From Candidatus Woesearchaeota archaeon (GTDB lineage: Archaea; Nanobdellota; Nanobdellia; Woesearchaeales; UBA10216), in the NCBI GenBank assembly GCA_016180195.1, contig JACPBS010000010.1, forward strand, positions 16,687-80,686: a stretch of DNA of 64,000 bases. The letters run 5' to 3'. How positions within the stretch are numbered: position 1 is the stretch's first letter; every line of letters begins with the position of its first letter. Position numbers and translations under genes: made by a program. Shown here in pieces: positions 2,621-44,846 of the stretch. Under the pieces are notes generated by a model, which was not told where the DNA came from, did not search any database, and saw nothing but the letters and a program-made list of their open reading frames with translations.

Positions 2621-3061
2621 TTAGTCTTTTGTTTTCAGGTAATGAATTACCAGCAGGATGATTCCTATGCTTATGCTTGCGTCCGCTACGTTGAATGCGG
2701 GCCAAAACCCGAAGTCAATGAAATCTATAACATGGCCCCGGAATATCCTGTCTATTATGTTCCCTGTCGTTCCTCCGAGGATTAGGCCAACTCCGATTTT
2801 CGCGGTCTTGCTTTTTGTTTTTCTGTAGAACAGTAGTATTGCTGCGGAAAATGCGATGCCGATGATTCCCAGGATGAGCGATGAGTTCTTGAAGAGCCCG
2901 AATGCAGCACCTGTATTTTTAACAAGTTGTATCTTGAGAAGCCCAAGATCTATTGGGTAGGAAAGCTTGTTTGCAAGAAATTTCGAAAGCTGGTCTATGG
3001 CAACTATTGCTGCGGTCAGCAAAAGCAGGGCTTTACCATCCTCTTTTCCTGAAATATTCAT
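2621..3061 (-). CDS. lspA: Lipoprotein signal peptidase (signal peptidase II)
   Basis: LspA motifs NTGAAFG, GGTTGNIIDR and FNVAD. Four predicted TM segments. Confidence 0.8.
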   Translation of the reverse strand: MNISGKEDGKALLLLTAAIVAIDQLSKFLANKLSYPIDLGLLKIQLVKNTGAAFGLFKNSSLILGIIGIAFSAAILLFYRKTKSKTAKIGVGLILGGTTGNIIDRIFRGHVIDFIDFGFWPAFNVADASISIGIILLVIHYLKTKD

Positions 3062-6300: not shown

Positions 6301-6407
6301 GTCAGTGAATTGCCCGAATATACGTAGCCTGCGAATACCTGGGAATCAGCTCTTGCAGCGAGCGCGAGCGTGATTAGGATTAACAGGATTATTGGCTCAC
6401 GTCTCAT
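3369..6407 (-). CDS. Large (1012 aa) secreted multi-domain surface protein, S-layer or adhesin-like
   Basis: N-terminal signal peptide (ILLILITLALAARA). Long array of beta-rich T/S/N-rich segments with many N-x-T/S sequons. C-terminal hydrophobic and basic tail. Confidence 0.6.
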   Translation of the reverse strand: MRREPIILLILITLALAARADSQVFAGYVYSGNSLTVDKQVIFIHLSENGIIADYGKGSLEITNNSCESTDYFRVCLDNIDFDYTAKKKRISIRAISTIPSITITRSVSKSELVVGEEATFTVTLTNTGGVARNASFQDSFSDSFEVYDVDGAYASNHMVSWSGIIGRSGTKEIEYKIKAKKQAKQVTKATLSYFDGYVTRNAYSSEQTINAAHFLLIESGVGKTSTYVGQPNNFTINITNKGNNSINATVEIEFSPDITVYPPLQFTKTGKGMFKWSGEIRKRNLSNNRFFSKPFTFDISSGSIGASQIIIRASYADLTTQENLEMQETKKEVKVSDAGVAIRTNINDAVIESNQLFKAKIWVQNLNPYAPIKDVLVSAYTGVGYLPDVYFSEIGKGVQVLAIEKEIYAPNTSSTTGFPIDINMTYNINGGKFAKSLKSTISVTNIRDLTINHIPSKTSVESGETFTFTVTMNNPRLTGINNVNVFDTIPPEFDRYGQTSSSSISIPKKDTLTVYTYEVTAPKVNQEKTFQIRTNAEYSDSGNEFLFSEIRHYNISKETKITVLPAKFPLSVTSTFPDTEFYTGHESEINYVIRNPSDTRTAKGVVLHFPLQPEFDTIGITSMEIPDIDPGESVYLTSKHKIRPKLNDTRVLLKPYLTYTDGQGSNYTYNHTTTSLKVKTTPIYGPALILTKNSSEKANNTDKFNVTLNVRNIGSEAANAEIINGNEKFSLQVQPNSEYSRNDTMSIPEPGPFEIPPATATYTYQNLRLYTASNSKTIEVISKPLLKLEKTAPEKANNLDPIEIAIRVINLQEAPLDVKITDGESQWVIAGLTGERTLKSNISLSKTGSTLLEKPTASYVYGNHNYTVSAETSPMVEVSEKSFASLEKSSSKQDAKAGDEITITLTLRSTHESALEAELKDSGRAWNISLAPGKEEKVSYKIKANEMELPEATATFSYLNKKHTVKSNNVMINITEEHARPEKKEMGAEENLFKKIINGIIRILTIKRSDI

Positions 6408-20613: not shown

Positions 20614-20943
20614 TCATGACAGTGTGGGTATTGGTGGTGGAGCTACATCATTTCCGGCTGGTTGGCTGATTGTGGGTATTTCAGGGGGGACAGATTCATT
20701 CTTCCCTTCCTGGCGGGGAATTGGCGGAGTTTCGGTTTGCTTAACAGGCTCTATTGGCAGTTTATCGTTTTTTTCAGGAAGTTTGGGCGGGATTATTTCC
20801 GATGGTCTGTTAAAATCATCCGCTTCATTGACATAATTGGTCTTGAATAGCATGAATGCGGACAAAGCCAGGAATAATGTCACTACGGCGACGCAAATCA
20901 CCCATAATTTTTCTACTTCTCCCTTTTCATTCATTTTAATCAT
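20614..20943 (-). CDS. Small membrane-anchored Pro-rich protein
   Basis: One TM helix, then a PPxxP-rich tail. Confidence 0.4.
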   Translation of the reverse strand: MIKMNEKGEVEKLWVICVAVVTLFLALSAFMLFKTNYVNEADDFNRPSEIIPPKLPEKNDKLPIEPVKQTETPPIPRQEGKNESVPPEIPTISQPAGNDVAPPPIPTLS

Positions 20944-22169
20944 CCGAAAACGTCTATTACCATCTTAACAAATTTTCCTTCGAACCAGACCATCTTTGTT
21001 GCCCGCGCAATTACAGTTGAATTCCCGCTTCGTGATATATTCAGCTTTCCTGTCCTTGGCTCGTAAGGATCTCCTTCGCAGCAAAGAACTTCCTTTCCTC
21101 CGGGGTATGGTCTTCTGAATCCCGATTTCCAGTCATGGCATGCGTCAGCTGATGCAGAGTCGTAAAATGTGCATCCGTTTGTTCCCTGGCAGCTTTTGTC
21201 GCACTTTCCATTGCTTCGCTGCCTTGTGCAGTCCGAATTGCAGTCATTTGGGCCGTATCCAAGCAGGAAATTTACTGTTGTTGTGTTGCCGCCTTTTATA
21301 AAAAGATTCCTGATGTCAGGTGTGTATGCCCCTCTTGAGGCTATTAGGGTGTAGTTATTTTCAGGAACCGCCATCAGATAGCTTCCGTCGCTTCTTGTAG
21401 TGCTTGAATTCGCAAAGGGTATCGTTTCCACTTTTGCCCCAGTCAGGAGCCCCAGGTCTATGCCTGTGACCGTGCCATTTACGCATCCCCTGCAATTTCC
21501 TGATGGGCAGTAGCTGAAAAAGGAGGAGTTGCAATCGCTTGTGGGGCCGTCGCATCCGTCATCCACCCCGTTCCCGTCAGAGTCAAGCATCCTCCAGTCG
21601 CCTCCAACGCATTTGAATCCGTTCTCGCATGAATTTTCATAGCAGGTTGCGTTGAGGCATAAGGCATAAACCCGTCCTCCGGTTGCAGCAAGCCCGCTTT
21701 GCTTGTAGTTGAAGCAGTCCCCCACATGGGCATCGTCAAAGTCGGATAGCGAGAATGCGCATGCGTCATAGTTTGCATTCAAGCAAGTGGTGTTCGCGTT
21801 GTCCAGGACTGAAGAGGCAAGGACTGGTGAGGAAGCAATGAATAGGGACCATGTAAGGTTTATTGGGTATGCTGAAGTTGTATTTGTGGACGCGTGTCCG
21901 TTTGATGCGTCGGACAGCCATGCTATCGTGTTCCTTGACGTGCTCAGGTTAGGAGCACCCTTGCAGCATATGCTTACCTTGTTGTTTGCTCCGATTGCGT
22001 TTGGCAATGAAGGATGGGCATTTTCCCAGTCAGTCATGTTGATGAGCGTGATTTCGTTGTTGCAGAAGTCCCCTGCGGATAGGTTTGCTGTTCGGCAGGA
22101 AAGCCTTGCTGAGGCACTTGGAGTAAGAAAAACCGCAATTAACAATAACAGGGCGAAATATTTTTTCAT
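20940..22169 (-). CDS. Cys-rich secreted protein with a carboxypeptidase-regulatory-like beta-sandwich segment
   Basis: Start set at MKKYFALLLLIAVFLTPSASA (signal peptide). More than 30 Cys. The GTVTGIDLGLLTGAKVET...SDGSYLM segment resembles a CarbopepD_reg-like fold. Confidence 0.5.
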   Translation of the reverse strand: MKKYFALLLLIAVFLTPSASARLSCRTANLSAGDFCNNEITLINMTDWENAHPSLPNAIGANNKVSICCKGAPNLSTSRNTIAWLSDASNGHASTNTTSAYPINLTWSLFIASSPVLASSVLDNANTTCLNANYDACAFSLSDFDDAHVGDCFNYKQSGLAATGGRVYALCLNATCYENSCENGFKCVGGDWRMLDSDGNGVDDGCDGPTSDCNSSFFSYCPSGNCRGCVNGTVTGIDLGLLTGAKVETIPFANSSTTRSDGSYLMAVPENNYTLIASRGAYTPDIRNLFIKGGNTTTVNFLLGYGPNDCNSDCTRQRSNGKCDKSCQGTNGCTFYDSASADACHDWKSGFRRPYPGGKEVLCCEGDPYEPRTGKLNISRSGNSTVIARATKMVWFEGKFVKMVIDVFG

Positions 22170-22212
22170 ATTACCTCTTTTGTTCTGCCTTATTGTTACG
22201 TATTTATATGTT

Positions 22213-22617
22213 TTATGGTGAAAAAGATGCGGCACAGTACCTGCAGCAAAAGGAGAATGCCTTGCTTCCGAATCTTTGTTTAAAACCTCTGCCATAAACC
22301 TTGCATCCGCAGTGGGCGCATGAGGTTATGCCGTGGAAAAGGGATTCGTAAGCTATGTTTCCGAACATTGTCAGCATTTTTTTTGCAAATTCCTTGCCTT
22401 TTTTTGTCATCCTGTAGGTCTTCTTGTCGCGTTTTCCCGTGTTGCCTGCCGAAATAATGCCTTTCTCGGAAAGAAGGGTGAGGAAAGGGTACACCTGGCT
22501 CGGGCTAACTTTTCGCTCTAGCTTTTCCCTTAGATCCTTTATTATCTCGTAGCCGTGCTTTGGCCTGTCCTTCAAGAGGAGCAATGTATAGAAATTTATA
22601 AGGCTGTTAATCTGCAT
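22213..22617 (-). CDS. PadR-family transcriptional regulator with a C-terminal Cys4 zinc ribbon
   Basis: wHTH with PKHGYEIIKDL...SQVYPFLTLLSEKGII (PadR signature). C-terminal CAHCGC...CCRYC. Start set at the internal Met. Confidence 0.6.
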   Translation of the reverse strand: MQINSLINFYTLLLLKDRPKHGYEIIKDLREKLERKVSPSQVYPFLTLLSEKGIISAGNTGKRDKKTYRMTKKGKEFAKKMLTMFGNIAYESLFHGITSCAHCGCKVYGRGFKQRFGSKAFSFCCRYCAASFSP

Positions 22618-22674
22618 AAGATGGCATTTTGGACCGAAATATTTAAATATTTCTATATATCTTTTTTTAGACAT

Positions 22675-23371: not shown

Positions 23372-23975
23372 AAAATTGCATTCAAAATCAGAATGGAGGG
23401 TTGATTTTTTCAACAAATTTGCAGAATTCTATGATTTTACCCGGTTCTTTCTCACCAATACAAAGATCACGGTGGATAATATCCGGCGTTTCCTTCCTGA
23501 AAGGAAGGTTGGGCTGATGGTTGACGTTGGTGGAGGTTCCGGGATAATTAGCAGGGAGTTTCGCGGAAATGCGAGGAAGCTTGTTGTTTTGGACCCGTCA
23601 GAGAGGATGATCAGGAGGGCAAGGTCAAGGGGTCTGAGTGCAGTGAGGGCGTTTGCGGAGGAAACAGGGCTCAAGAATAAGTCTGTTGATGCCATAATCA
23701 TGATAGATTCTTTTCACCATTTTCGTGATCATGAAAAGGCATTGCTTGAGATGTCCAGGATACTCAAGGACAATGGGGTGATAGTGGTGGAGGAAATAAG
23801 GCCTGATTCTTTTCCTGGAAGGTTCCTGTTTTCGCTGGAATGGGCTCTTGGCTGCGGTAGCAGGTTTTTTGCGCCCGATGAGCTTCAAGGGTTGTTTGAT
23901 GATTCTGGTTTCAAATCTGAAACAGTGAAAGTTGGGTTCAGGTATTATCTGAGGGCTGGAAAATGGCGAAAATGA
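23343..23975 (+). CDS. Class I SAM-dependent methyltransferase
   Basis: Motif [14 protein letters not shown], motif II and post-II residues. The ORF begins at a TTG codon, so the true start is uncertain. Confidence 0.65.
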
Positions 23976-26383
23976 TCATACAGATAAGGGGAATGGACTG
24001 CGCAAGCTGTGCAGCAACTATTGAAAAGTCGCTCAAGCGGGTGAAGGGGGTTTCGGATGCTAATGTTAATTTTGCTAGCGGAAAGGCCATGGTAGTGTAT
24101 GATGAGTCCAAGGCAAGTGAAGAGGGGCTGAATAAGGCTGTGGAGAACTCGGGCTACACGGTAGCGAGGACCGGGGCATTGCAGGGGGTGACGTTCTCTG
24201 TAAGGGGGATGGACTCGCAGCATTGTGCTTTGATTGTGGAGAATGCACTGAGGAAAGTGGCCGGGGTTAGTGAGGCTTCTGCCAGTTATCCGGGAATGAA
24301 GGCAATGGTGAAGTTTTCTCCTCCTGCCACAGTTGATCGGCTTAAGTCTGCAATTGTTGATGCAGGCTATTCTGTGGATGAGGAACCGGGTGACATGGAA
24401 AAGGCTGAAAGGGAAAGAGATATTCTAAAGCTAAGGTCAAAGTTCTTGTTTTCGTTTATCCTTGGCATTCCTCTTGCATACATGGCGATGGGAAGCCTCC
24501 TTAATCTGCCCATGCCCGGAATTGACGAGAAGTTGCTTGCAATTTTTCAGCTGGCGTTGACTGCGCCTATCTTGATCATCAATAATGAGTTTTATATCAG
24601 GGGAATAAGGGCTGTTGTTTTTGGAAGGACTGCTAACATGGACACCTTGGTTGCTGTTGGCACTGGGGCTGCTTTTATATACAGTCTTGTTGTGACTTTC
24701 CTTATTGTTTTTGGAAATGCCGCGGTAGGTGTTCATGACCTGTATTATGAGATCGCGGGCCTTCTCTTGATGTTCATAGTTCTGGGCAAGCTGCTTGAGG
24801 CGATTGCCAAGGGAAAGACTTCCGAGGCAATCAAGAAGCTTCTTGGGTTGCAGGCAAAAACAGCAGTTGTAGTCAGGAGGGGTAAGGAGTCTGTTATACC
24901 GATAGAAGAGGTTGTGGCCGGGGATATTGTTGTTGTAAAGCCAGGTCAAAAAATCCCGGTTGACGGCATTGTTATTGATGGCCATTCTTCAGTTGATGAG
25001 TCAATGGTGACCGGCGAGAGCATTCCAGTTGAGAAAGTTAAGGGAAGCACTGTAATCGGGTCTACGATTAATACAACCGGAAGCTTCAGGTTAAAGGCAA
25101 CAAAGGTTGGTAAGGACACGCTTCTTGCCCAGATTATAAAGCTCGTTGAGGAGGCCCAGAGCAGCAAGGCCCCTATACAGAAGCTGGCAGACCAGATATC
25201 TGCATATTTTGTTCCTGCAGTGGCTGGTGTGGCTCTTGTTTCTGCAATTGCTTGGTTTGCTTTGGGGTATGGATTTGTTTTTAGCCTTTCGATATTCATA
25301 GCTGTGCTGATAATAGCTTGCCCGTGCGCAATGGGGCTCGCAACCCCCACCGCAATTATGGTGGGGACTGATTTGGGCGCGCAGAACGGGATACTTTTCA
25401 AGACTGCAGAATCGCTCCAGGTAGCCCACAAGTCAGGAGTGATTGTGTTTGACAAGACAGGCACCCTGACAAGGGGTAAGCCTGAAGTGACTGATTTGAT
25501 TGCTCGTCGTGGCGATGAATTGCTTAGGCTTGCAGCTATTGCTGAGAAAAAATCGGAGCACCCGCTCGCGAATGCAATACTGGATGCTGCCGAAAAGCGG
25601 GGAATAAAAGTGCCTGAACCATTGAAGTTTATCTCTTTAACCGGCAGGGGTGTGGATGCAACATACGGAAGCAAGAGGATACTTTTCGGCAACAAGAGGC
25701 TGATGGCTGAGAGAAAAATCAGCCTGGCTGGCTTTGGGCAGGATATAGAGCGGCTTGAGAATCAGGGAAAGACAGCAATGATCCTTGCTCATGATGGGAA
25801 AGTGGCTGGCGTGATCGGTGTTGCTGACACGATAAAGGCAGATACAAGGGAAGCGATAAGCGAGCTTAAGGGCATGGGTAAGGAAGTGGTTATGATCACG
25901 GGTGATAATAGAAGGACTGCCGGGGCGATTGCATCTCAGCTCGGGATAGATACTGTGCTGGCAGAGGTTCTTCCCGAAGATAAGGAGAAGGAAATCAAGA
26001 GGCTGAAGTCAGAGGGGAAAAAGGTTGCGATGGTTGGTGACGGCATCAATGATGCTCCTGCCCTTGCAGCAGCAGATGTCGGGATTGCAATTGGATCTGG
26101 GACTGATGTGGCGATAGAAACAGGGGATATTGTCCTTGTAAAGAGCAATTTGAAGGATGTTGCCCTTGCATTTAGGCTTAGCAGCTACACGGAAAGGAAG
26201 ATAAAGCAGAATCTTTTCTGGGCTTTCTTTTATAACACGGCAGGGATTCCGATTGCAGCCGGTTTGTTATTCCCGTTCACTGGGTTTCTCCTTAACCCGA
26301 TTGTGGCAGGAGCTGCAATGGCGTTCAGCTCTGTTAGCGTAGTTGGCAATACATTGCTTATGAGAAGATTCAGGGCGAAGTAA
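23963..26383 (+). CDS. copA: Copper-translocating P1B-type ATPase with two N-terminal HMA domains
   Basis: [12 protein letters not shown] and [12 protein letters not shown] metal-binding motifs. CPC motif ([12 protein letters not shown]), [17 protein letters not shown]. Confidence 0.9.
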
Positions 26384-34322: not shown

Positions 34323-36230
34323 ATGTCAAAGGCATATTTTGCTGAGCACATGGGGAAGGATGATTTCCTGAAGCTGGCAGTGAAGTTTAATCCGAATGCA
34401 AATGTGAATCTTATTGGCAAGGCTTTTGATTTCGCTGAGCAGAGCCATCGTGGCCAGAAGAGGCTTTCTGGAAGGGATTATTTCCTTCATTGCAAGGAAG
34501 TTGCGTACATGCTTGTTAAGCTGAGGCTGGATACAGCCACGATTTGTGCAGGACTGCTCCATGATGTTCTTGAGGATTCTGACAGGAAGGGTGAAGAGAT
34601 CAGGAGAACTTTCGGCGAGGAAATCCATTATCTTGTTGTTGCCCTGACCAAGACGAAGAACATAAGCTTGCAGGCAAGCGATGAGGAAAGGGCGGAAAAC
34701 ATCAGGAAGGTTCTTCTTGCATCTATCAAGGATATAAGGGTGATTTTCATCAAGCTTGCTGACAGGCTCCATAATATGCGCACCCTTAAGTATCAGCCTT
34801 ATGATAAGCAGGTTGCTGTTTCAAGGGAGACCCTTGATATCTATGTTCCGATTGCGTATAAGCTTGGTATGTACAGGATAAAGTCTGAGCTTGAAGATCT
34901 GTGCCTTAAGCATCTTAACCCTTCTGTGTATATGGAGCTGAAGGTGAGGATTGACAAGAAGAAGGAGGAGAGGGAGCAGGAGGTTAAGTCTGTGATCAAG
35001 ACTGTGAAGAACATTCTAAGTTCAAGGGGGATTAAGGCAAAGATCAGCGGGAGGGCTAAGAATTTTTTCAGCATCTACAAGAAGATGCTCAGGAAAGGTG
35101 TCTCGTTTGAGGAGATTCACGACCTGTCCGCGATAAGGATCATTGCTGATAATCCTGATGACTGTTACAGGATTCTCGGCATAATCCATTCGACTTGGAC
35201 TCCTTTGGTCAAGAGGTTTGATGATTATATCGCATTTCCGAAGCCGAACATGTACCAGTCACTCCATACAGAGGTTTTGATCAACAAGAAGCCTGTTGAG
35301 GTTCAGATCAGGACTTGGAAGATGCATCACATTGCCGAAGAGGGGTTTGCCGCTCATTGGAGGTATAAGGATACGGAGAGGGATAAGAGGTTCGATCGGA
35401 AAATAGCGTGGCTCAAGCAGATTCTGGAATGGAGGATGTCCTCAAATGCCAAGGAATTCCTGGAGAACCTTAAGATTGATCTTTTCAAGGACGAGATTTA
35501 CGCTATCACCCCAAAAGGGGATCCTATATCGCTTCCCGAGAAGGCAACTCCGGTTGATTTTGCCTTCGCTGTTCATACGGATATAGGCAACCGCTGTGTC
35601 AGGGCCAAGGTGAATAATGCAATCGTTCCTTTGGATCATGAGCTCAAAAGTGGCGATGTTGTTGAGATAATAACTTCAAAGAATGCCGTTCCTTCAAGGA
35701 ACTGGCTGAAGTTCGTGAAGACAACCTTGGCTAAGAGCAAGATAAGGCACGGGCTTGGTATTCTGCTTCCTGAAGCTCAGTCTGAAAAGGAAATTGCTGA
35801 TGAGGAGCAGGTGATCTCAAGGATTGATTTTGAGAAGAGCTCCATGCTGAAGCTTTCCAGGTGTTGCCTGCCCAGGTATGGTGACCAGTTAACAGGCTAC
35901 AGGATGAAGGATGGTAAGATTGCTGTTCATAAGGCAGGCTGTGATAATTTCAGGCAGCTTGATTCAGGCAGGAAGATGTTGCTGGGTTGGAAGGGCATGG
36001 AGAGCTCGGGGACCGTGAAGCTCCGTGCAGAGGTGATTGAGAGCAGTGGGATGTTCCAGGAGGTTCTTGGTTCGCTTACGAGCAGCGGTGTAAAGATAGA
36101 ATCAATCCGTGCAAAGACGAGCAAGAACAGGCTGTTGATATTGCTCGAAGTGAAGCCTGGAAGCGAGTTGGGAAAGGCGATTGACACCCTAAAAAAGGTT
36201 GAGAACGTGATTGAGGTCAGGATAGAATAG
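34323..36230 (+). CDS. Full-length RelA/SpoT homologue (HD hydrolase + (p)ppGpp synthetase + TGS + ACT)
   Basis: HD motif (HRGQKR...LLHDVLED). Synthetase motifs (RAKNFFSIYKKM, YIAFPKPNMYQSLHT, EVQIRTWKMHHIAEEGFAAHWRYK). TGS (IYAITPKGD) and a C-terminal ACT. Confidence 0.85.
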   Translation: MSKAYFAEHMGKDDFLKLAVKFNPNANVNLIGKAFDFAEQSHRGQKRLSGRDYFLHCKEVAYMLVKLRLDTATICAGLLHDVLEDSDRKGEEIRRTFGEEIHYLVVALTKTKNISLQASDEERAENIRKVLLASIKDIRVIFIKLADRLHNMRTLKYQPYDKQVAVSRETLDIYVPIAYKLGMYRIKSELEDLCLKHLNPSVYMELKVRIDKKKEEREQEVKSVIKTVKNILSSRGIKAKISGRAKNFFSIYKKMLRKGVSFEEIHDLSAIRIIADNPDDCYRILGIIHSTWTPLVKRFDDYIAFPKPNMYQSLHTEVLINKKPVEVQIRTWKMHHIAEEGFAAHWRYKDTERDKRFDRKIAWLKQILEWRMSSNAKEFLENLKIDLFKDEIYAITPKGDPISLPEKATPVDFAFAVHTDIGNRCVRAKVNNAIVPLDHELKSGDVVEIITSKNAVPSRNWLKFVKTTLAKSKIRHGLGILLPEAQSEKEIADEEQVISRIDFEKSSMLKLSRCCLPRYGDQLTGYRMKDGKIAVHKAGCDNFRQLDSGRKMLLGWKGMESSGTVKLRAEVIESSGMFQEVLGSLTSSGVKIESIRAKTSKNRLLILLEVKPGSELGKAIDTLKKVENVIEVRIE

Positions 36231-37510: not shown

Positions 37511-37951
37511 CTATTTTTTTGATTTTTCCTTGATAAAGATTGCCGCCGCTGCTAGAACTGTCAGTCCACCTATTGCCCAGAAATAGATCTTGTAGGGCGT
37601 TTCCTGTATGAATGGTGTGCCGATTGTCAGCATCCCGAAGTTTGCTATTATTAGGTTTTTTGATATGCATTTCCCGTATTTGAAGTACAGGAATAGTGTC
37701 AGGAGGAAGAGTGAGACCCCGATCAGCCATATTGGTGTCGCTATCTGCTGCAGGAAGAGCAGCGGCATTCCGGTAACTGTTATTCCTATCACGCTTAAAA
37801 GGGAAATCGCGGCCATGCATATGCTGTGGCAGAGATTATAGGAGCTGAATATTCCGGATATCCCTGACGCGCTGCTTGCCCCGCTTATCAGTTTTTCTTT
37901 TGCTGTTTTTGTGTTTGGCATCCTTTTCCGTTTTTTCCCAGTTCGTTTCAC
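37511..37951 (-). CDS. Hypothetical membrane protein with an intramembrane CxxxC
   Basis: Four TM helices. CHSIC lies in the first helix. Last gene of the redox operon. Confidence 0.4.
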   Translation of the reverse strand: MKRTGKKRKRMPNTKTAKEKLISGASSASGISGIFSSYNLCHSICMAAISLLSVIGITVTGMPLLFLQQIATPIWLIGVSLFLLTLFLYFKYGKCISKNLIIANFGMLTIGTPFIQETPYKIYFWAIGGLTVLAAAAIFIKEKSKK

Positions 37952-38012
37952 GTTGTGAATGCCGAACTTAAGTAGTTTTAATCCATCTTTTTTCTAAAAA
38001 GTGGTGCGGGGC

Positions 38013-39182
38013 CTATTGCTGCGTTGCTGCTGGGTTTTCAATTACTTTCCCTGTTTCAAGGTCCTTGTACGGGTGTCCGGGCCATTGGTCGAACTTTCTG
38101 AATATGTATTTTCCGTCGCTTTCTATTGTTCCCACAACAGTCCATGGGGCATTGAGGTTATTGTATGCTTCGACATCTGAAAGTATTATTGTAGGTACTG
38201 ATGTTATGTTGTATTTCCTTATGAGGCTTTTCCCCTCTGTGCTTGAGATGTCAACGGTCTTTTGCGTGTCAAGCTCGATTCCGAATCCTAGCTTGAGTAT
38301 GCTTATGTGATCTGTGACGTTGTAGCATTGGCCGCATTTGCTGTCGTTTAGCATTATTGCTGATGCCAGGCCTATTGTTTTCCCGGATTCAAGCTCGTAA
38401 TATGGCGGGTTTGCTTCCCTCATCACGTATGTTCCGTCTTTTTCAATCGTTCCTATGGAATCCCATACCTCTGCTATTATTGGGTATTTTGAGGCATCGC
38501 TTGAAAGCAGCATTGCGGGCACCTTTGTTATGTTATATTTCTTGGCAAGCGCCGCACCCTGGTCTGATGATGCATCTAGCTCGTTTTCCTTGTATATCCC
38601 TATGCCTGCCGCTCTCATCTGTGTTGCCATTGAGTTCATGCTTGAGCATTTGGCACACAATTTGGAGTTCAGGTATGTTATGGTTATTCTTCCCACGATT
38701 TTCTGTTCAGCCAGGTCCCTGTATGGTGGTCCTACGCTGCCGAGAACCATGGCATTATTTTCCTTGTTGAACCCTGATAGCGATAATTTTTCTGTTTCCC
38801 CTGTAATGACTATGGTTGGTACGTTTTTTATCCCGTATTTGTTTATGATTTCCTGTGCTTCAGGGCTTGTATAGTCTATGCTTTTTTCGCTTGTTACGTT
38901 GACGTTCAATCCCTTTATGTTCTGTATTAGACCTTCAATCTGGAAGCAGTCTGTGCAGCTTTTATCTGTTATTGATGTCAGTTGGATTGCTGCTGGTTTG
39001 GCAACGTTTTTTGCTTCAGCGAGCTTGGAGCTTATTGTTGAGCTTAGGCTTGATATCTGTGCCTGGTTGAAGATCATTATTGCGAGCAGCACTGCCATCA
39101 TTGCAGGTATTATGATGTTCTTATGCGTCTTGTGGACTGGTAAGTGTTTGTGTTGTTCCATTTGTTTCACCTTAGGCTGCAT
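38013..39182 (-). CDS. Membrane-anchored protein with three thioredoxin-fold repeats (CxxC each)
   Basis: Three repeats with CTDC / CAKC / CGQC, each followed by a KYGI(K)NVPTIVI-type cis-Pro loop. N-terminal TM anchor. Confidence 0.6.
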   Translation of the reverse strand: MQPKVKQMEQHKHLPVHKTHKNIIIPAMMAVLLAIMIFNQAQISSLSSTISSKLAEAKNVAKPAAIQLTSITDKSCTDCFQIEGLIQNIKGLNVNVTSEKSIDYTSPEAQEIINKYGIKNVPTIVITGETEKLSLSGFNKENNAMVLGSVGPPYRDLAEQKIVGRITITYLNSKLCAKCSSMNSMATQMRAAGIGIYKENELDASSDQGAALAKKYNITKVPAMLLSSDASKYPIIAEVWDSIGTIEKDGTYVMREANPPYYELESGKTIGLASAIMLNDSKCGQCYNVTDHISILKLGFGIELDTQKTVDISSTEGKSLIRKYNITSVPTIILSDVEAYNNLNAPWTVVGTIESDGKYIFRKFDQWPGHPYKDLETGKVIENPAATQQ

Positions 39183-39640
39183 CCTGATAGCTGGCTGATA
39201 GCTTCCAGTGTCTGAACTTGCCTGTACATTGTTCCGTTTATCTCCCAGGTCGGGGTTATGGTTATTTGCTTCTCATCGCAGAGCGCTTTTTGCTCGTCGC
39301 AAATCACGTATTTCAGGTTTTTGAAGGATTCGCCGAACATGCTTTTCTGTCTTCCGGTGTACTTGCACCATTCATTTCCATATATGACAACGTCTTTTGT
39401 TGCCAGGCATTTTGTAAATTCATCAACCTTTGCCGCGTTTGCGCTGGATGACTTGAAAATCAGGAATATTCCGAATAGAATCATTAGTGCAACAAACCCG
39501 AGGGCTGCCTTCAGGAAAATGTCTTTCCTGTTGCTTTCCGCCTTGTCTTTTTTCCGCTCTTCCCTTGTTTGTTCCCTTTTTAGCTTTCTTTTCTCAGCCC
39601 TTGTAAGCTCTGGGCTGTCAGGGTTTGTTGGCTCTTCCAT
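39167..39640 (-). CDS. Membrane-anchored glutaredoxin/thioredoxin-fold protein
   Basis: Basic N-terminus, TM helix, then VVIYGNEWCKYTG...ITITPTWEING (Trx-fold signature). Confidence 0.5.
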   Translation of the reverse strand: MEEPTNPDSPELTRAEKRKLKREQTREERKKDKAESNRKDIFLKAALGFVALMILFGIFLIFKSSSANAAKVDEFTKCLATKDVVIYGNEWCKYTGRQKSMFGESFKNLKYVICDEQKALCDEKQITITPTWEINGTMYRQVQTLEAISQLSGCSLR

Positions 39641-39643
39641 TGA

Positions 39644-39853
39644 TTACACCGAAGGCAATGCGCTTTGGATCGTTTCTGTGTTGTCAGGCACAGCAGCTTG
39701 CTGCCCGGCAAATCTTCCGCATCCACCTGCTCCCTGTGGCTGGTTGTTTGCGCTGTATGTTGCGTATCCTGTCTGCTGCGATTTTGATTCGCATCCTGCA
39801 ACAATCAGCGATGTCAGAGCCAGCACTGCCATAACTAGTAATATTTTCCTCAT
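39644..39853 (-). CDS. Small secreted protein with a lipobox (LIVAGC)
   Basis: Signal peptide MRKILLVMAVLALTSLIVAG/C fits the [LVI][ASTVI][GAS]C consensus. Confidence 0.45.
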   Translation of the reverse strand: MRKILLVMAVLALTSLIVAGCESKSQQTGYATYSANNQPQGAGGCGRFAGQQAAVPDNTETIQSALPSV

Positions 39854-39865
39854 TTTTTTTTCCTC

Positions 39866-40066
39866 CTAGCATCCACCTACCATTGTAGGCAGCTCATTTA
39901 TGTTGTTTGTTGACTGTCCTGTGCCTGTATTCGTGGCAGCAGATCCCCCTATTTTTATTGAGCCCTCTTCGATCTTTGCTTTCAGGCTTGTAAGCTGGTA
40001 TGCTTGAACTGCCGAGGCTATTAGCAGGAAGCCCAATACTATGATCATGATAAGGTTTTTGTTCAT
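39866..40066 (-). CDS. Small secreted protein ending in ELPTMVGGC
   Basis: Signal peptide MNKNLIMIIVLGFLLIASAVQA. The C-terminal 8 residues are conserved with the upstream gene despite synonymous codon changes. Confidence 0.45.
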   Translation of the reverse strand: MNKNLIMIIVLGFLLIASAVQAYQLTSLKAKIEEGSIKIGGSAATNTGTGQSTNNINELPTMVGGC

Positions 40067-40076
40067 TTTTTTCCTC

Positions 40077-40784
40077 CTAGCATCCTCCAACCATTGTTGG
40101 CAGGTCTCCGATGTTTGACTTGTCGCCTGCTTTAATTTTTTTGAGCAGATCCTTGTCGTTAAGGACTGCGGGTGTTATCTCGATGCCGTTTTCCACTGCG
40201 GCAACGCCCTTCTCAACCATGTTCTTGGGGTAGTACAATGCTTTCCATCGTGTAAGCTCGGCGAGAACCTGCTCGTTTGTCCATTTGTCAGGCTCATTTT
40301 TCAGGAGGTATTTTGTGAGCCCCCTGAAAGATGCCGCGTGTGCGCATCCGCATGCATCCCTTCCGCTTGGGTCGACCACATATGGTGCGCCGCAGCAGAA
40401 CTCGCAGCTTATCCGGGTTGTAACGTTTATGTATCTTGTTTTTTCATCTGCACTTAGCTGGGAAGTGGGTATTTTTCTGTCAAGGTTTGCCAGGACATTT
40501 ATGCTTTGCTCAGGCGTGTCATAGCTGACTCCTATATCTTCTCCGTAGCTAGGCATTCCTTTGGGTATGATTGCCGCGATTACGTTCTGGACAACATCCC
40601 CGCCCTGCTTTACCTTGAACGACGTGTCTTTGCTGGAGCTTCCCGATCCGATGTTGAAGAATCCTGTTTTCTGCCCGCCAATGGCGGCTGATACTGATAG
40701 CACCTGCAGGCTGTTAAACACAACAAGCAGGGCCAGGATCGCTACTCCGATTAGTTCCCAGTTGTTCTTTATCCTGTCGCGCAT
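40077..40784 (-). CDS. Membrane-anchored protein with a Cys cluster (CEFCCG...CGC), ending in DLPTMVGGC
   Basis: N-terminal TM helix. C-terminal motif shared with the downstream paralogue. First gene of the operon. Confidence 0.5.
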   Translation of the reverse strand: MRDRIKNNWELIGVAILALLVVFNSLQVLSVSAAIGGQKTGFFNIGSGSSSKDTSFKVKQGGDVVQNVIAAIIPKGMPSYGEDIGVSYDTPEQSINVLANLDRKIPTSQLSADEKTRYINVTTRISCEFCCGAPYVVDPSGRDACGCAHAASFRGLTKYLLKNEPDKWTNEQVLAELTRWKALYYPKNMVEKGVAAVENGIEITPAVLNDKDLLKKIKAGDKSNIGDLPTMVGGC

Positions 40785-40958
40785 TCTGAAAGATCCCCCG
40801 ATTCAAAGATTATCAACACCTAAACTATTTTATTAAAAATTTGGGTGTTTCATTATACTTTACAGGCTTTGTAATGCTTATATTTAAATTTTTGTTTTCT
40901 GATAACCTTTACACTCCCCGTAAAATATTTATAGTTGATTCTTCATTTGCTTTTTCTG

Positions 40959-41333
40959 ATGAAGGGCATTAAGTTTAACACCGATTTCGAATCTGTTCTC
41001 AGCCCTTTGGAGAGGGATGTTCTGCAGCTTTTGTGGCCTGACAGGAGGATGAAGGTCAGGCATATTTATGAAAAGCTGAGGCCAAGGAGGGATGTTGCGC
41101 TAAGCAGCGTGGCGGTTATCCTGGACAGGCTTTTTGAGAAGGGGGTTGTTGACAGGGAGATAGAGACAGGAAGGGGCGGGATAAGATATGTCTATTATCC
41201 GCTTCATGACCGCAAGCAGTTCGAGAGATCTTTGATCGAGACAACTGTGAACAGCCTTATTGACCGTTTTGGAACAACTGCTGTTTCGTATTTCAACAGC
41301 AGGTTTGGGGATGAGGGTGAGAAGAAGAAATGA
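40959..41333 (+). CDS. BlaI/MecI/CopY-family winged-helix repressor
   Basis: LSPLERDVLQLLWPDRRMKVRHIYEKL...VAVILDRLFEKGVVDRE is the Penicillinase_R pattern. Confidence 0.65.
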   Translation: MKGIKFNTDFESVLSPLERDVLQLLWPDRRMKVRHIYEKLRPRRDVALSSVAVILDRLFEKGVVDREIETGRGGIRYVYYPLHDRKQFERSLIETTVNSLIDRFGTTAVSYFNSRFGDEGEKKK

Positions 41334-42079
41334 TCTGCAATGAGTGCGCGCCGCTTTTCTTTGGCGACCCTGTGAAGATTGTTATCGCGGTTTCATCGCT
41401 GGCTGTTGCCCTTCTGACCTTTTTGCTTATCCTGAAAAGGGACCTTTCTTATGGGGTCAGGGTGTTTTTGATTTATCTTCACGTGTTCTCGCTTGTTTTC
41501 CCTTTTGTTTTTTATCTTTTTTTCAGCGGGTGCAGCACACTTTTTTCGGGGTGCAGCAAGATTGTTCCTGTGATTTACATGCTGCTGATAACTGGCGTTA
41601 TTTCTGCCATAATCGGCTCTGTTTGCGCGCCAATCGTGTTCATGTGGAGAAGCTCGAGGTGCAGGCTCAATGATCGGGGGATTTCAAGATTTGTATGCAG
41701 GGAATCGGGTGTTGCCGGAATAAGGCCGCCATCGCTTTTCATTGTTGACTCGGCAAGTCCCTTTGCCTTCTCTTTTTCGAACATAAGGCCTGTGATTTTT
41801 GTTTCAGTCGGTCTTCTAGACCTGCTTGGGAGGAAGGAGCTTGAGGCCGTTTTGCTGCATGAGATCATGCACATCAGGAATGGTGCTTCGATTTTCAGGT
41901 TTTCTGCTTTTTTCATGAGGGTGTTCTCCCCCCTTTCTATGTTTGCTTCCCTTGGTCGCGAGCTGGATGAGGAAGAGCTCGGCGCTGACAGGTATGCGTG
42001 CCTGAGGCAGGGCACTTCAAGATTTGTTGAATCTGCAAAAAGGAAGATTGACCTGTTTTTTTACTGGAGGAAAATATAA
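41330..42079 (+). CDS. BlaR1/MecR1-like M56 zinc-metalloprotease membrane protein
   Basis: Four TM helices. HExxH (LLHEIMHIRN) in the cytoplasmic loop. Overlaps the repressor gene stop. Confidence 0.65.
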   Translation: MICNECAPLFFGDPVKIVIAVSSLAVALLTFLLILKRDLSYGVRVFLIYLHVFSLVFPFVFYLFFSGCSTLFSGCSKIVPVIYMLLITGVISAIIGSVCAPIVFMWRSSRCRLNDRGISRFVCRESGVAGIRPPSLFIVDSASPFAFSFSNIRPVIFVSVGLLDLLGRKELEAVLLHEIMHIRNGASIFRFSAFFMRVFSPLSMFASLGRELDEEELGADRYACLRQGTSRFVESAKRKIDLFFYWRKI

Positions 42080-42083
42080 ACTG

Positions 42084-43175
42084 ATGAGGAAATCTGTTTA
42101 CCTGGTCCCGTTTGCAGTTATATTTTTCCTATTCGCTCTGGCTTCGTTTTTCCGTGACTCCATTGATGTTTCGCTGATTTCGAATTTGAGGAATATTTCT
42201 TTTGCTATAGCTTTTCTCGGCGGTGTTATGAGCATATTCTCGCCTTGCTCGATTGCGGTTGTTCCTGCTTTTGTGTCCTATGCATTCAAGGAAAGGCGGG
42301 ATGTTGGAAAGATGACCCTTGCATTTTTTGTCGGTTTTTCCCTGGCTTTTGTAACCCTTGGGTTGCTGATTGCTTACCTCGGTAAGATATCTTTTGTGTA
42401 TTTCCAGAACACATCCTCTGACCTTATCCTTGCCATTGGCTTCCTTTTGGTGATATTTGGGTTTATGGCATTTCTCGGCAGGGGTTTTACTTTCATCAGT
42501 ATCGGGATGAGGCCCGGGCATGACGTGGCGGGTGTTTTCCTTTTCGGCATTCTTTTTGCAGTCGGTTGGAGTGCCTGCAGCGGGCCTATCATCGCGGGCA
42601 TAATTTCTGTTGCAGCAGCATTCAGCAATTATGCGTATTCCGCTCTTCTTCTTTTTTTCTATTCGCTTGGGGTTGCTGTTCCCTTATTCTCGATGGCCTT
42701 CGCATATGACAGGTATAATCTCGCTGAGAATCCTTTTGTGAAGGGCAGGTATTTCGGTTTTTCTGTTCTCGGAAGGGATTTCATGGTTCATTCGACGAAT
42801 GCTGTTGCAGGCATCATGCTTGCAGGGCTTGGTCTCCTGTTTATCGTCTATAGGGGGACGACTTTTCTTACAGGCCTTGATCTTTTTGGCAGGTTTTTGC
42901 TTTTTGTTTTTCTGCTGCTGTGCGCCTATGTTGTGTATGAGCTTGCAGCCAAGAGGCTTGTTTCAGGGGCTAATGGCCGGCATGTCGCGTTTGTCCTGTT
43001 GTTTTTTGTTTCCCTTTCGGTTTTCATGTACATAAACTCTAATTTTATTGTGACAACTGTTGGTTATTCCGAGCTTTTTGACAGGATAATGCTTCAGAAC
43101 AGCGCAGTTTTCAATGTTGTTGGGGTGGTGCTTCTTGCTTTTTTTGTTTTTCTTATCCTGAGGGGAAAATATTAA
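42084..43175 (+). CDS. CcdA/DsbD-family transmembrane thiol-disulfide electron transporter
   Basis: AFLGGVMSIFSPCSIAVVPAFVSY (DsbD_2 signature, Cys in TM1) and a second Cys in TM4 (WSACSGPI). Confidence 0.7.
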   Translation: MRKSVYLVPFAVIFFLFALASFFRDSIDVSLISNLRNISFAIAFLGGVMSIFSPCSIAVVPAFVSYAFKERRDVGKMTLAFFVGFSLAFVTLGLLIAYLGKISFVYFQNTSSDLILAIGFLLVIFGFMAFLGRGFTFISIGMRPGHDVAGVFLFGILFAVGWSACSGPIIAGIISVAAAFSNYAYSALLLFFYSLGVAVPLFSMAFAYDRYNLAENPFVKGRYFGFSVLGRDFMVHSTNAVAGIMLAGLGLLFIVYRGTTFLTGLDLFGRFLLFVFLLLCAYVVYELAAKRLVSGANGRHVAFVLLFFVSLSVFMYINSNFIVTTVGYSELFDRIMLQNSAVFNVVGVVLLAFFVFLILRGKY

Positions 43176-43200
43176 ATACTGCAGGTCTTACTCTTTGAGT

Positions 43201-43374
43201 ATGTTTGAAAACCTGTTCAACAAGACAAATATTCTGCTTGCCTCAATTATACTTGCCTTGTATATCGCATTCATTGTTTCGAGGTTGCTGTTCAGCGGCA
43301 AGAGCAAGTATGAGAAGGACATGGATAGGATCCTCACTTCGGATAAGCACAAGGTGAAGGGCAGGTTTGAGTAA
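43201..43374 (+). CDS. Hypothetical 57-aa single-TM protein
   Basis: Not in the track. Reads MFENLFNKTNILLASIILALYIAFIVSRLLFSG... Confidence 0.25.
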   Translation: MFENLFNKTNILLASIILALYIAFIVSRLLFSGKSKYEKDMDRILTSDKHKVKGRFE

Positions 43375-44120: not shown

Positions 44121-44846
44121 ATGCTTCCTTATTTCACCTTATCATCTTTTAAGCTGGGATTTATCACGATTCATGTCTGGGGGATTTTTGCTGCGCTTGG
44201 TTTCATTGTTGGGATGTTTTTTGCTTCAAGGGAGGCTGCGAAAAGGGGGCTGGACCCTGATGCGATCCATGATTCTGCTCCATGGGTGATGCTTGGCGCC
44301 ATTGTGGGGGCGCGGATTGTTTTCCTTCTGGAGAACCCCTGGGCTGTTTCAGGCTTTTTTGATATTTTCAGTGTTTGGAATGGGGGCCTTGCTTTTCATG
44401 GGGGCTTTTTTGGGGGAGTCGGTGTTTTTTTGGCTTATATGAGGCACAAGGGCTTGAGTGTCTTAAGATATTCAGATGCGATTGCTCCTGGCATAGCTAT
44501 AGGCCATGCGGTTGGCAGGTTAGGATGCCATGTAACTGGCATGCATGTTGGCAAGGAGTCTTCGCTTCCGTGGTCAATATTTCATGAGGGGGCTGCCAGG
44601 CATCCGGTTATTCTGTATGAGATTGCGGCTTTGCTCCTCATTTTTTTTGTTCTTTTGTGGGTGAGGGAAAGGAAATTCTCCCGTGTTGATGGGCGTGTTT
44701 TCTTCATGTACATTGCATTGTATAGCTTCGCAAGGTTTTTCATTGAGTTTTTCAGGACAGACCCTGTTTATTTTGGCTTTTCAGCAGCTCAATTTATTGT
44801 CGTTGCCGTTTTTGCTGCTTCCCTGTTTTTCCTGTTTAGAAAATAG
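44121..44846 (+). CDS. lgt: Prolipoprotein diacylglyceryl transferase
   Basis: WNGGLAFHGGFFGG (Lgt GGLxxHGG motif). GRLGCHVTG is a degenerate Lgt signature. C-terminal ARFFIEFFRTDP...SAAQ. Confidence 0.75.
   Translation: MLPYFTLSSFKLGFITIHVWGIFAALGFIVGMFFASREAAKRGLDPDAIHDSAPWVMLGAIVGARIVFLLENPWAVSGFFDIFSVWNGGLAFHGGFFGGVGVFLAYMRHKGLSVLRYSDAIAPGIAIGHAVGRLGCHVTGMHVGKESSLPWSIFHEGAARHPVILYEIAALLLIFFVLLWVRERKFSRVDGRVFFMYIALYSFARFFIEFFRTDPVYFGFSAAQFIVVAVFAASLFFLFRK

Follow-up and report, generated by a model that had tools for sequence, protein, structure and literature searches.

A conserved extracytoplasmic thiol operon with a BlaI-like repressor, linked by gene neighbourhood to copper, in DPANN archaea and Candidate Phyla Radiation bacteria

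Introduction

The Scs system ties copper stress to a DsbD-like transporter, the Cu(I)-binding DsbA-like protein ScsC, the membrane thioredoxin (Trx) ScsD and a small CxxC membrane protein (PMC10907172), and TACA/TGTA half-sites are the known operator signature of the BlaI/MecI/CopY repressors (PMC7253601). Features resembling both are found together in a 64-kb stretch of DNA, termed the window below, from a metagenome-assembled genome (MAG) of Candidatus Woesearchaeota (DPANN), an ultra-small groundwater archaeon. The locus in question consists of a minus-strand operon that begins with the gene of a membrane-anchored, cysteine-rich protein of 235 aa (Cys235) and encodes several Trx-fold proteins, and of a divergent set of genes for a BlaI-like repressor, an HExxH membrane protease and the electron transporter CcdA; a DsbA is encoded elsewhere in the window.

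The interpretation favoured here, with a probability of roughly 45%, is an inducible, CcdA-powered envelope system resembling Scs, which would combine extracytoplasmic thiol repair with Cu(I) buffering against copper and oxidative damage. In function it would also be comparable to DsbD-DsbC systems, and its derepression would fall to a BlaR1-like protease that is sensor-less and detects the signal with an extracytoplasmic Cys loop. Its foundations are the gene content of the locus, the folds of the encoded proteins, their conservation, the operator and the genomic linkage to copper genes.

Gene organization and phylogenetic distribution

The nine genes proposed by an earlier, sequence-only reading of this DNA are all present, six packed on the minus strand (37511-40784) and three divergent from them on the plus strand (40935-43175). 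Minus-strand neighbours are separated by -16 to +12 nt, with 61 nt before the last gene (37951-37511), and all soluble domains were predicted to lie outside the cell by simple hydropathy and charge analysis. The plus strand carries, in order, the genes of the Penicillinase_R repressor, the HExxH protease and CcdA, followed by those of a ZIP transporter and Lgt. The identities given to the genes were borne out by Pfam, by an AlphaFold model of the protein with three Trx units (trx3) and by homology to PDB entries, with the exception of a supposed glutaredoxin. Cys235 is identical in sequence to HYU11_04165. A chimeric contig was considered and rejected, because S8e, aIF1A, aIF2-gamma and TFIIB, archaeal markers found along the whole contig, flank the region on both sides.

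Relatives of Cys235 occur in 302 species genomes (one genome was scanned per species), and since these homologues have recurrent neighbours the gene arrangement is not a product of chance. The hosts include Woese-, Aenigmat-, Micr-, Iain-, Nanohalo- and Nanoarchaeota among DPANN, and Magasanik-, Buchanan- and Parcubacteria among the Candidate Phyla Radiation (CPR)/Patescibacteria; the titles of several MAGs ('uncultured Methanosarcinales', 'Gammaproteobacteria') evidently stem from automatic mislabelling of DPANN or CPR bins. In total, 82 non-redundant loci were compared, 80 from the species scan and two from look-ups of the encoding contigs. The neighbour counts in these loci are lower bounds, many contigs being short. 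Open reading frames (ORFs) were called mechanically, and BlaI was counted by direct BLAST, as neighbour cluster 2 mixed true BlaI with antisense ORFs of Cys235.

Comparison with relatives, suggested by the sequence-only reading as a check, revealed a recurrent core trio of Cys235, the small membrane-anchored protein ggcS and trx3, usually accompanied by BlaI, the protease and CcdA. The gene of ggcS is a neighbour in 78 of the 82 loci, that of trx3 in 60, blaI in 48, the protease gene in 40-45 and ccdA in 32-51. Further neighbours are cupredoxins (31 loci), the polytopic membrane protein mem146 (24-28), a Trx protein of the vitamin K epoxide reductase (VKOR) type (27), an unannotated 216-aa protein (26), CopA (20), small membrane proteins with an ACCAHH (18) or a GCPTCG motif (13), DUF1573 and DsbA (13 each), Lgt (11), PadR-TRASH (10) and HMA chaperones (8). 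The repressor, CcdA, the Trx protein resembling protein disulfide isomerase (PDI) and protein disulfide oxidoreductase (PDO), the VKOR-type Trx protein and DsbA are members of known families; the conserved core is not the Trx proteins alone but the unannotated pair ending in LPxMVGGC-COOH, namely Cys235 and ggcS.

Gene order follows the host lineage. In DPANN maps blaI and the protease gene are divergent from Cys235-ggcS-trx3, and in CPR maps blaI, the protease gene, Cys235, ggcS and trx3 follow one another in one co-directional operon. In Iainarchaeota-type loci (L055, L056, L058, L060, L063, L066, L073, L080 and L081) BlaI and the protease are replaced by a membrane-anchored winged-helix regulator with two transmembrane (TM) segments (DUF7343), encoded ~500 nt upstream of the Cys235 homologue and bearing a conserved C-x5-C-P-H-E in a predicted outward loop. 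This protein may be a one-component transmembrane metal or redox sensor; as a putative second, unrelated sensor with a thiol/His loop, it argues for the favoured interpretation.

In the literature searched, no earlier description was found of the whole assembly, the operator described below, the sensor-less Cys-loop protease, the two GGC-tail families or their exclusive CPR/DPANN distribution. The statement that this is not a described archaeal system therefore holds as far as earlier description is concerned, whereas the system is not specific to archaea, being found in CPR/Patescibacteria as well.

Three groups of unannotated proteins recur at these loci. A family of ~216 aa pairs with ccdA in 26 loci (for example L024, L033, L017 and L020) and has the operator before it in two; it bears a TM anchor, a CDACGMP...C...C pattern and HxH/HMH motifs, has no Pfam or NCBIfam match and does not occur in the window. 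Small polytopic membrane proteins of two further unannotated families, with the intramembrane Cys motifs M-x-ACC-x-H and GC-x-x-CG, recur downstream of the core in both CPR and DPANN (L054, L072, L074, L079, L083), where tandem DUF1573 proteins with a CxC motif are also found.

The BlaI-like repressor and its predicted operator

The repressor was assigned to Penicillinase_R (PF03965) with an E-value of 3.3e-15 and 56.9 bits against a cut-off of 22.6, and its closest solved relatives are M. tuberculosis BlaI (2g9w, E 3e-6) and MecI (E 3e-4). It contains zero cysteines and hence lacks the C-terminal CxC-x4-CxC Cu/Zn site of CopY; its mode of inactivation is accordingly regarded as BlaI/MecI-like, not CopY-like. 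The connection between this repressor and the thiol operon, already drawn in the sequence-only reading, is supported by the adjacency of the two across phyla and by a palindrome that occurs both in the divergent promoter and before dsbA.

The search of 40785-40934 for a BlaI operator palindrome yielded a predicted operator, TACA-N5-TGTA (O1, Table 1), just downstream of the TATA-like TTTAAATATAA on the minus strand. A weaker operator-like site stands next to the blaI TATA box, and paired operator sites are also found in three other loci (L024, L031, L033). The exact TACA-N5-TGTA motif occurs only twice in the window, against 0.23 expected, once in the divergent promoter and once before dsbA, where it stands between a TATA-like box and the ATG, 7 nt upstream of this start codon. 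Upstream of Cys235 homologues it is present in 25 of 84 regions, whereas other spacers of 0-11 nt give 0-3 and random regions of the same loci contain it in 1.6%. In extended form the consensus reads GYTTTACA-N5-TGTAAARC. The loci, 1.19 Mb in all, contain 53 exact sites, of which 28 lie directly upstream of Cys235, and the remaining ones include sites before genes for cupredoxins, ccdA, mem146 and further Cys-bearing membrane proteins.

On these computational grounds, control of the adjacent Cys235 operon by the repressor is well supported as a prediction, and so is the membership of DsbA in the same predicted BlaI-like regulon, since one of the two exact sites in the window precedes dsbA.

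Other candidate elements were rejected. The classic cop box TACANNTGTA was considered as the operator and is absent from the window, its place being taken by the N5 variant from comparative analysis. The probable 5' leader of the Cys235 mRNA holds an inverted repeat, AACACCTAAA...TTTGGGTGTT, which is probably not a structured regulatory element, as it has no advantage in folding energy over shuffled sequence (z = 0.19). Rfam revealed no RNA family in the 64-kb window.

The membrane protease

The partner of the repressor scores above the cut-off as Peptidase_M48 (30 bits against 20.3, E 6e-7), and its M56 score is 24.4 bits against a cut-off of 31 (E 2e-5); its best NCBIfam and PDB matches are to HtpX, the best solved relative being an HtpX fragment. 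Three TM helices precede the protease domain, in which HEIMH (residues 177-181) is invariant and a downstream E..AD is conserved. The chain of 249 aa ends ~70 residues past HExxH and includes no further domain, and for this reason the protein lacks the C-terminal penicillin-binding sensor domain of BlaR1. Thus, of the BlaR1-type M56 sensor that had been proposed, the HExxH membrane metalloprotease coupled to blaI was retained, whereas the M56 assignment and the sensor domain were not.

The loop between TM2 and TM3 consists of 12 uncharged residues, with Cys68 conserved in 96% and Cys75 in 72% of homologues. It is predicted by the positive-inside rule to face outward, and its position is that of the extracellular loop L2 of BlaR1. 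The protease adjoins BlaI in ~40 of the 48 BlaI-containing loci and is translationally coupled to blaI, with a 4-nt overlap in the window, and we infer that it removes the repressor by proteolysis.

Thioredoxin-fold proteins, CcdA and mem146

The AlphaFold2 (AF2) model of trx3, with a predicted local distance difference test score (pLDDT) of 93.2, consists of three beta-alpha-beta Trx units. Foldseek matched it to PDI, ERp57, ERdj5, calsequestrin and the PDO of P. furiosus with probabilities of 0.95-1.0, and the family profile matched PDO 1J08/1A8L with an E-value of 1e-9. The CxxC motifs of the three units (CTDC, CAKC and CGQC) are conserved to 95%, 81% and 95%, and the corresponding cis-prolines 122, 222 and 330 are invariant or nearly so. 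The claim of three consecutive Trx-fold repeats is upheld by these data, and the objection that the repeats might lack a Trx fold falls, because the model and Foldseek show that fold in every one of them.

The small Trx protein grx157 had been labelled a glutaredoxin-fold protein, and this label was replaced, as the protein is homologous to the Trx-like domain found in bacterial VKOR (PDB 3kp8, E 2e-24). Its profile aligned with the whole domain in 3kp8, 3kp9 and 4nv2 (E 2e-24 to 6e-24). The active site is WCKYT (CxxT), in which the resolving Cys has been lost; most homologues are likewise CxxT and a few keep CPHC. The protein has the TPTW cis-Pro loop and three invariant cysteines, C78, C92 and C154. 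Neither the CxxC pair nor the VKOR partner expected of a VKOR-type protein was found, no VKOR-like protein being among the recurrent neighbours.

CcdA matched DsbD_TM (PF02683) with an E-value of 5.8e-12, and its catalytic C75 and C185 are invariant in 62 homologues. The protein is ~150 aa longer than DsbD_TM (residues ~232-383), with about four extra predicted TM helices. The DsbA placed at a distance from the operon by the sequence-only reading proved to be one, matching Thioredoxin_4 (PF13462, E 3e-36) and DSBA (PF01323, E 1e-22) and carrying the active site CPYC. The last gene of the operon encodes mem146, an accessory, DPANN-restricted member whose TM1 starts with VCHxxC and which has a third Cys; neither it nor the other small Cys-bearing membrane proteins of these loci obtained an annotation in any search.

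Two families with a C-terminal Gly-Gly-Cys

Cys235 is a membrane-anchored, extracytoplasmic protein whose AF2 model (pLDDT 88.7) is mostly helical. Its alignment revealed an invariant cluster, CExCC...CGCxH, composed of C127, E128, C130, C131, C145, G146, C147 and H149, and an equally invariant C-terminus, [LVIA]-P-x-[MQ]-V-G-G-C, which is followed immediately by the stop codon. Neither the single protein nor 76 aligned members matched Pfam or NCBIfam, a profile search against PDB sequences gave no relative, and Foldseek gave no PDB match to the model below E = 1 (best E 1.6). An exhaustive profile search of 1.84e9 proteins found only 319 representatives. Since the C-terminal tail was modelled at pLDDT 81-88, it hints at docking of the tail on its own domain.

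The partner ggcS consists of an N-terminal TM helix, a conserved juxtamembrane VQAxQL, a Gly/Ser-rich linker and the LPxMVGGC-COOH tail, and has no Pfam model and no PDB relative; judged by this layout it is in effect Cys235 minus the central domain. GGC-COOH ends in the 82 loci belong essentially to these two families only (80 and 79 copies) plus six unclustered ORFs, four of which are small TM-plus-linker proteins that end in MVGGC and resemble ggcS. By their sequences, Cys235 and ggcS constitute two new protein families, no earlier description of which was found in the literature. A third tethered thiol is provided by the small lipoprotein, found mainly in Woesearchaeota, which has a conserved Gly-flanked Cys in a GGGCG motif.

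One Cys235-family member in the representative library (P0352) carries an N-terminal fusion to an FKBP-type prolyl isomerase (E 3.6e-12). It is a lone case that may be an assembly or gene-calling artefact, and domain fusions were set aside as a clue to the function of Cys235, this single example being too thin to use.

Linkage to copper genes

Copper genes were counted as CopA, CuA-type or CupA-type cupredoxins, HMA and PadR-TRASH. Among the 31 loci of at least 18 kb, 26 contain at least one of them, with a CopA-type ATPase in 15 and a cupredoxin in 21; by our estimate, a single-copy gene of a ~1 Mb genome would be expected within such a range in a few per cent. The CuA-type cupredoxin lipoproteins have the full ligand set H...C-x3-C-x3-H-x2-M and match Thermus CuA (E 7e-13), and the CupA-type cupredoxins carry CxMxM and match S. 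pneumoniae CupA (E 2e-10) and the CopA N-terminal domain (E 1e-6). In two close relatives of the window (L008 and L009) a CuA cupredoxin is encoded within the blaI-protease-ccdA operon, and in four loci the operator lies 6 or 22 nt upstream of a cupredoxin ORF.

The sequence-only reading had described a regulated system for disulfide reduction and oxidative folding. Its genes and their regulation stand, whereas 'oxidative folding' is probably too generic a term, because the neighbourhoods point strongly to copper.

A CopA is also encoded in the window, 14 kb from the operon. It is a P1B-ATPase with two HMA domains and a CPC motif, and divergent from a methyltransferase gene and copA lies the gene of PadR-TRASH, a regulator of the PadR family whose C-terminal part is a TRASH metal-binding domain. 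PadR-TRASH and CopA form a second copper module with its own regulator, and the same pair adjoins the Cys235 operon in other phyla.

Proposed mechanism and the points against it

With the system at rest, a dimer of the BlaI-like repressor would occupy the TACA-N5-TGTA operators, which stand between TATA box and start site in front of the Cys235 operon, of the repressor's own blaI-protease-ccdA operon and of dsbA. Binding of Cu(I), or a copper- or oxidant-driven disulfide, in the TM2-TM3 Cys loop would render the cytoplasmic HExxH domain active, and the protease would then remove the repressor. Upon derepression CcdA would pass electrons from cytoplasmic thioredoxin to an outward-facing chain, in which trx3, the CxxT protein grx157 and DsbA would reduce and isomerise wrongly oxidised surface cysteines. 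The tethered, Gly-flanked thiols of Cys235, ggcS and the GGCG lipoprotein, held reduced by the CcdA/Trx chain, might bind and buffer Cu(I), or have a sacrificial or relay function, close to the membrane, where copper is expelled by CopA. Once the loop cysteines were re-reduced or demetallated, the switch would reset. In this scheme we infer what the signal is, that the repressor undergoes proteolysis, which way the electrons flow and that the GGC-tail proteins bind copper.

A number of observations weigh against such a copper-responsive system. The operon in the window has neither a cupredoxin nor CopA adjacent to it, the CopA standing 14 kb off beside its own PadR-TRASH and without a TACA-N5-TGTA site, and adjacency in general may overstate coupling, as metal-resistance genes often cluster in islands. 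No N5 operator was found upstream of blaI in the CPR loci, and the operator is therefore claimed for DPANN lineages only. As the repressor is devoid of the CopY CxC metal site, copper would have to act through the protease, which itself lies below the Pfam M56 cut-off. Cys235 and ggcS carry no recognised copper motif (HMA CxxC, Met-rich), the Met of MVGGC is replaced by Gln in ~7% of tails, and the CxxC...CxC portion of the Cys cluster might serve only to bind a structural Zn.

Alternative explanations

A general oxidative-folding machine for organisms without quinones is a doubtful alternative. Here Cys235 would be the disulfide catalyst that replaces DsbB/VKOR by an Ero1/Erv-like logic, with a helical domain, a Cys cluster and a flexible C-terminal shuttle Cys; it would oxidise DsbA, grx157 and trx3, the electrons of CcdA would serve isomerisation and ggcS would be a tethered shuttle thiol. 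Such a machine agrees with the presence of DsbA in the same predicted regulon, with the homology of grx157 to a domain that VKOR normally oxidises when no VKOR or DsbB is present in the cluster, and with an all-helical Cys235 whose Cys cluster is invariant and whose tail (pLDDT 81-88) is modelled as if docked; the PDI-like partner is always adjacent, and the one fusion to an FKBP prolyl isomerase points the same way. However, no cofactor or electron acceptor can be named, as there is no FAD or quinone motif and Foldseek gave no similarity to Erv or Ero1, and the loss of the resolving Cys from most grx157 members misfits the cycle of a DsbA-like oxidase. Housekeeping folding also needs no stress-type repressor/protease switch, and it would be left unexplained why CopA, CupA-type chaperones and metal regulators are so strongly enriched.

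A bolder proposal, and a rather improbable one, is that Cys235 and ggcS form a novel extracytoplasmic redox or metal device of ultra-small CPR/DPANN cells. The free C-terminal Gly-Gly-Cys of ggcS would be a thiol cofactor comparable to glutathione but carried by a protein, on a flexible 'fishing line', and this cofactor would be docked, charged or discharged at the CExCC...CGCxH cluster of Cys235 and recycled by CcdA through the three-domain PDI. Cys235 would then be an enzyme of a new kind, which would either generate or relay disulfides without quinones, in place of DsbB/VKOR, or be a Cu-thiolate centre. The sensor-less BlaR1-like protease would exert control by reading in what redox or metal state its own outward loop is.

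It is unlikely that the system is an assembly line for cupredoxins comparable to CcdA/DsbD -> TlpA -> CoxB with Sco1/PCuAC, in which the Trx proteins would reduce CuA cysteines and the Met/Cys tails of Cys235 and ggcS would deliver copper as PCuAC does with its C-terminal extension. Known CuA assembly does combine membrane thioredoxins with copper chaperones that have a flexible C-terminal arm (PMC7558416). Genes of CuA-type cupredoxin lipoproteins are found in 31 of the 82 loci, some with the operator 6 nt upstream or inside the blaI-protease-ccdA operon, and 11 loci have Lgt as a neighbour. However, the full core is present without a cupredoxin within 10-25 kb in the window and many other loci, and some neighbouring cupredoxins are resistance chaperones of the CupA type or are without any copper ligands. 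No homology to Sco or PCuAC was found in Pfam or NCBIfam, and an assembly line has no obvious need for a proteolytic stress switch.

Defence against another thiophilic agent (Hg, Ag, Cd, As(III), sulfane sulfur or polysulfide), with the tethered thiols as traps and the small Cys-bearing membrane proteins as carriers like MerT/MerC, is quite unlikely. Several small unannotated membrane proteins with intramembrane CHxxC, ACCAHH or GCPTCG do accompany the core, a Trx protein is fused to a rhodanese domain in one CPR locus, and a ZIP transporter follows ccdA in the window; the weak NCBIfam similarity to ArsF/ArsG and TsoB, though, scores far below the cut-offs. No MerA, MerR, ArsR or ArsC genes were seen in the neighbourhoods, and the metal genes enriched there are copper-specific (CPC-type P1B ATPases with HMA, and cupredoxins of the CupA and CuA types).

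A role of LPxMVGGC-COOH as a sorting or processing signal (for C-terminal lipidation, cross-linking or covalent attachment to an S-layer or host cell), recognised by Cys235 as the enzyme while Trx/CcdA keep the acceptor Cys reduced, is very improbable: the invariance of the tail, its confinement to two co-encoded families, one of which is little beyond anchor, linker and tail, its ordered modelling in Cys235 and the restriction of the system to episymbiotic ultra-small lineages are set against a motif unlike the known sortase, exosortase and rhombosortase signals, which need a following TM helix, against the lack of a detected transpeptidase-like fold or catalytic triad, and against a copper neighbourhood and stress-type regulator that it leaves unexplained.

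Other features of the window

The features discussed are collected in Table 1. Between ccdA and the ZIP transporter gene lies a conserved 59-aa single-TM protein, which ends in ...ILTSDKHKVKGRFE, matches no family and occurs in 11 related loci. The window also encodes two large proteins that are secreted. These, one of 1012 aa with DUF11, CARDB and BatD repeats and one of 451 aa that is Cys-rich and without a Pfam match, are likely disulfide-rich surface proteins and as such candidate clients of the envelope thiol system.

Table 1. Positions of genes and sites in the 64-kb window
Feature	Coordinates	Strand	Description
Cys235	40077-40784	-	235 aa; one N-terminal TM segment (N-in, C-out); Cys cluster
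ggcS	39866-40090	-	start TTG 40090 (74 aa) or ATG 40066 (66 aa); TM segment and linker
Small lipoprotein	39644-39853	-	69 aa; lipobox LIVAGC
grx157, VKOR-type Trx protein	39167-39640	-	157 aa; TM segment and Trx fold
trx3, three-Trx protein	38013-39182	-	389 aa; TM segment and three Trx units
mem146	37511-37951	-	146 aa; polytopic membrane protein; VCHSIC (CHSIC)
BlaI-like repressor	40935-41333	+	Penicillinase_R; alternative ATG start 40959
HExxH protease	41330-42079	+	M48/M56-like zinc metalloprotease; overlaps blaI by 4 nt
CcdA	42024-43175	+	DsbD_TM; likely ATG start 42084
DsbA	1929-2570	-	TM-anchored; Thioredoxin_4/DSBA; CPYC
Predicted operator O1	40861-40873		TACAGGCTTTGTA; TACA-N5-TGTA; divergent promoter
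Weaker operator-like site	40909-40923		TTACACTCCCCGTAA; one mismatch; next to blaI TATA box
Predicted operator before dsbA	2577-2589		TACAATTATTGTA (also written GCTTTACAATTATTGTAATAC); exact TACA-N5-TGTA; flanks GCTT...ATAC match family consensus
Inverted repeat	40815-40849		probable 5' leader of Cys235 mRNA
59-aa protein	43195-43374	+	single TM
PadR-TRASH	22213-22650	-	
CopA	23963-26383	+	P1B-ATPase
Lgt	44121-44846	+	Pfam LGT, E 8.6e-56
LspA, signal peptidase II	2621-3061	-	Peptidase_A8, E 2.7e-35
Long RelA/SpoT homologue	34323-36230	+	635 aa; HD_4, RelA_SpoT, TGS, ACT
Large secreted protein	3369-6407	-	1012 aa
Secreted Cys-rich protein	20940-22295	-	451 aa

(p)ppGpp enzymes are unusual in archaea. 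A long RelA/SpoT homologue is encoded in the window directly upstream of aIF2-gamma, and a shorter one adjoins a CPR locus (L006). Lgt and LspA of the window are both of the bacterial type, the genes of both are flanked by archaeal markers, and lipobox proteins are encoded in the operon. According to a paper of 2025, archaeal homologues of Lgt or Lsp had not been identified (PMC12462473); the archaeal Lgt and LspA were probably acquired by horizontal transfer from bacteria, perhaps CPR.

Implications

DPANN and CPR make up a large share of microbial diversity, and their surface biology is mostly unannotated. Through the present analysis a conserved, regulated module of ~ten genes acquires a function that can be tested, together with a defined predicted operator, TACA-N5-TGTA, and a regulon. 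It would extend the proteolytic signalling logic of BlaI/BlaR1 to archaea, in a variant whose sensing needs no ligand-binding domain, and it adds two new families with an invariant C-terminal Gly-Gly-Cys that are confined to episymbiotic lineages. If the copper/thiol interpretation is true, the module shows how cells without outer membrane, glutathione and mostly quinones guard their exposed cysteines; if instead Cys235 and ggcS are a novel redox or metal device, a new catalyst of extracellular thiol chemistry has been found.

Comparison with known systems

The Trx-like domain of bacterial VKOR (Synechococcus, 3KP8/3KP9) aligns with grx157 over its whole length, including the region of the extra Cys pair and the PTW cis-Pro loop; grx157 differs in being unfused, with no VKOR in the loci examined, and in having CxxT in most members. 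With the PDO of P. furiosus (1A8L) and A. aeolicus (2AYT) and with eukaryotic PDI, trx3 shares tandem Trx units with CxxC and cis-Pro. It has three such units, compared with two in PDO and four in PDI, and its N-terminal TM anchor places it outside the cell, whereas PDO is cytoplasmic.

A two-Cys CcdA beside membrane-anchored CxxC Trx proteins recalls the reductive pathways from CcdA/DsbD to ResA, CcmG and TlpA and the TlpA-Sco1-PCuAC route, all the more as CuA-type cupredoxins are co-regulated in relatives. In contrast to those pathways, the Trx partner here is a three-domain, PDI/PDO-like protein, there are no genes for cytochrome c, Sco or PCuAC, and many loci, the window included, are without cupredoxins. 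CopY-CupA-CopA of S. pneumoniae likewise joins a BlaI-family repressor to copper efflux and a membrane-anchored cupredoxin that is a Cu(I) chaperone (PMC7558416), and CupA homologues are present in related loci. The repressor described here, however, is without CxC-x4-CxC, the 64-kb window contains no CupA homologue and its CopA has no operator.

ScsABCD of Salmonella, Proteus and Caulobacter is an inducible envelope module in which copper stress is linked to thiol repair, and the predicted regulon described here, which would likewise be inducible, has the same kinds of parts, namely a DsbD-family importer, a DsbA-like oxidoreductase, a membrane Trx and a small membrane protein bearing Cys. 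The likeness is confined to architecture and proposed function, as no orthology to ScsB, ScsC or ScsD was detected. The transporter here is a minimal CcdA without the alpha and gamma domains of ScsB, and a BlaI-like repressor and a membrane protease stand in the place of the CpxRA used by Scs. Cys235 and ggcS are without a counterpart in Scs, and the hosts are DPANN and CPR without an outer membrane.

With BlaI-BlaR1 and MecI-MecR1 the locus shares a Penicillinase_R repressor, a coupled polytopic HExxH protease and an operator of TACA/TGTA half-sites. A sensor-less BlaI-BlaR pair also exists in M. tuberculosis, namely Rv1846c/Rv1845c. In contrast to BlaR1 and MecR1, the protease here has no penicillin-binding sensor and scores better as M48/HtpX, and the half-sites are spaced by 5 nt instead of the 2 nt of the cop box. 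The predicted targets are thiol and copper genes in place of beta-lactamase or PBP2a, and in this archaeal host the operator lies between the TATA box and the start site.

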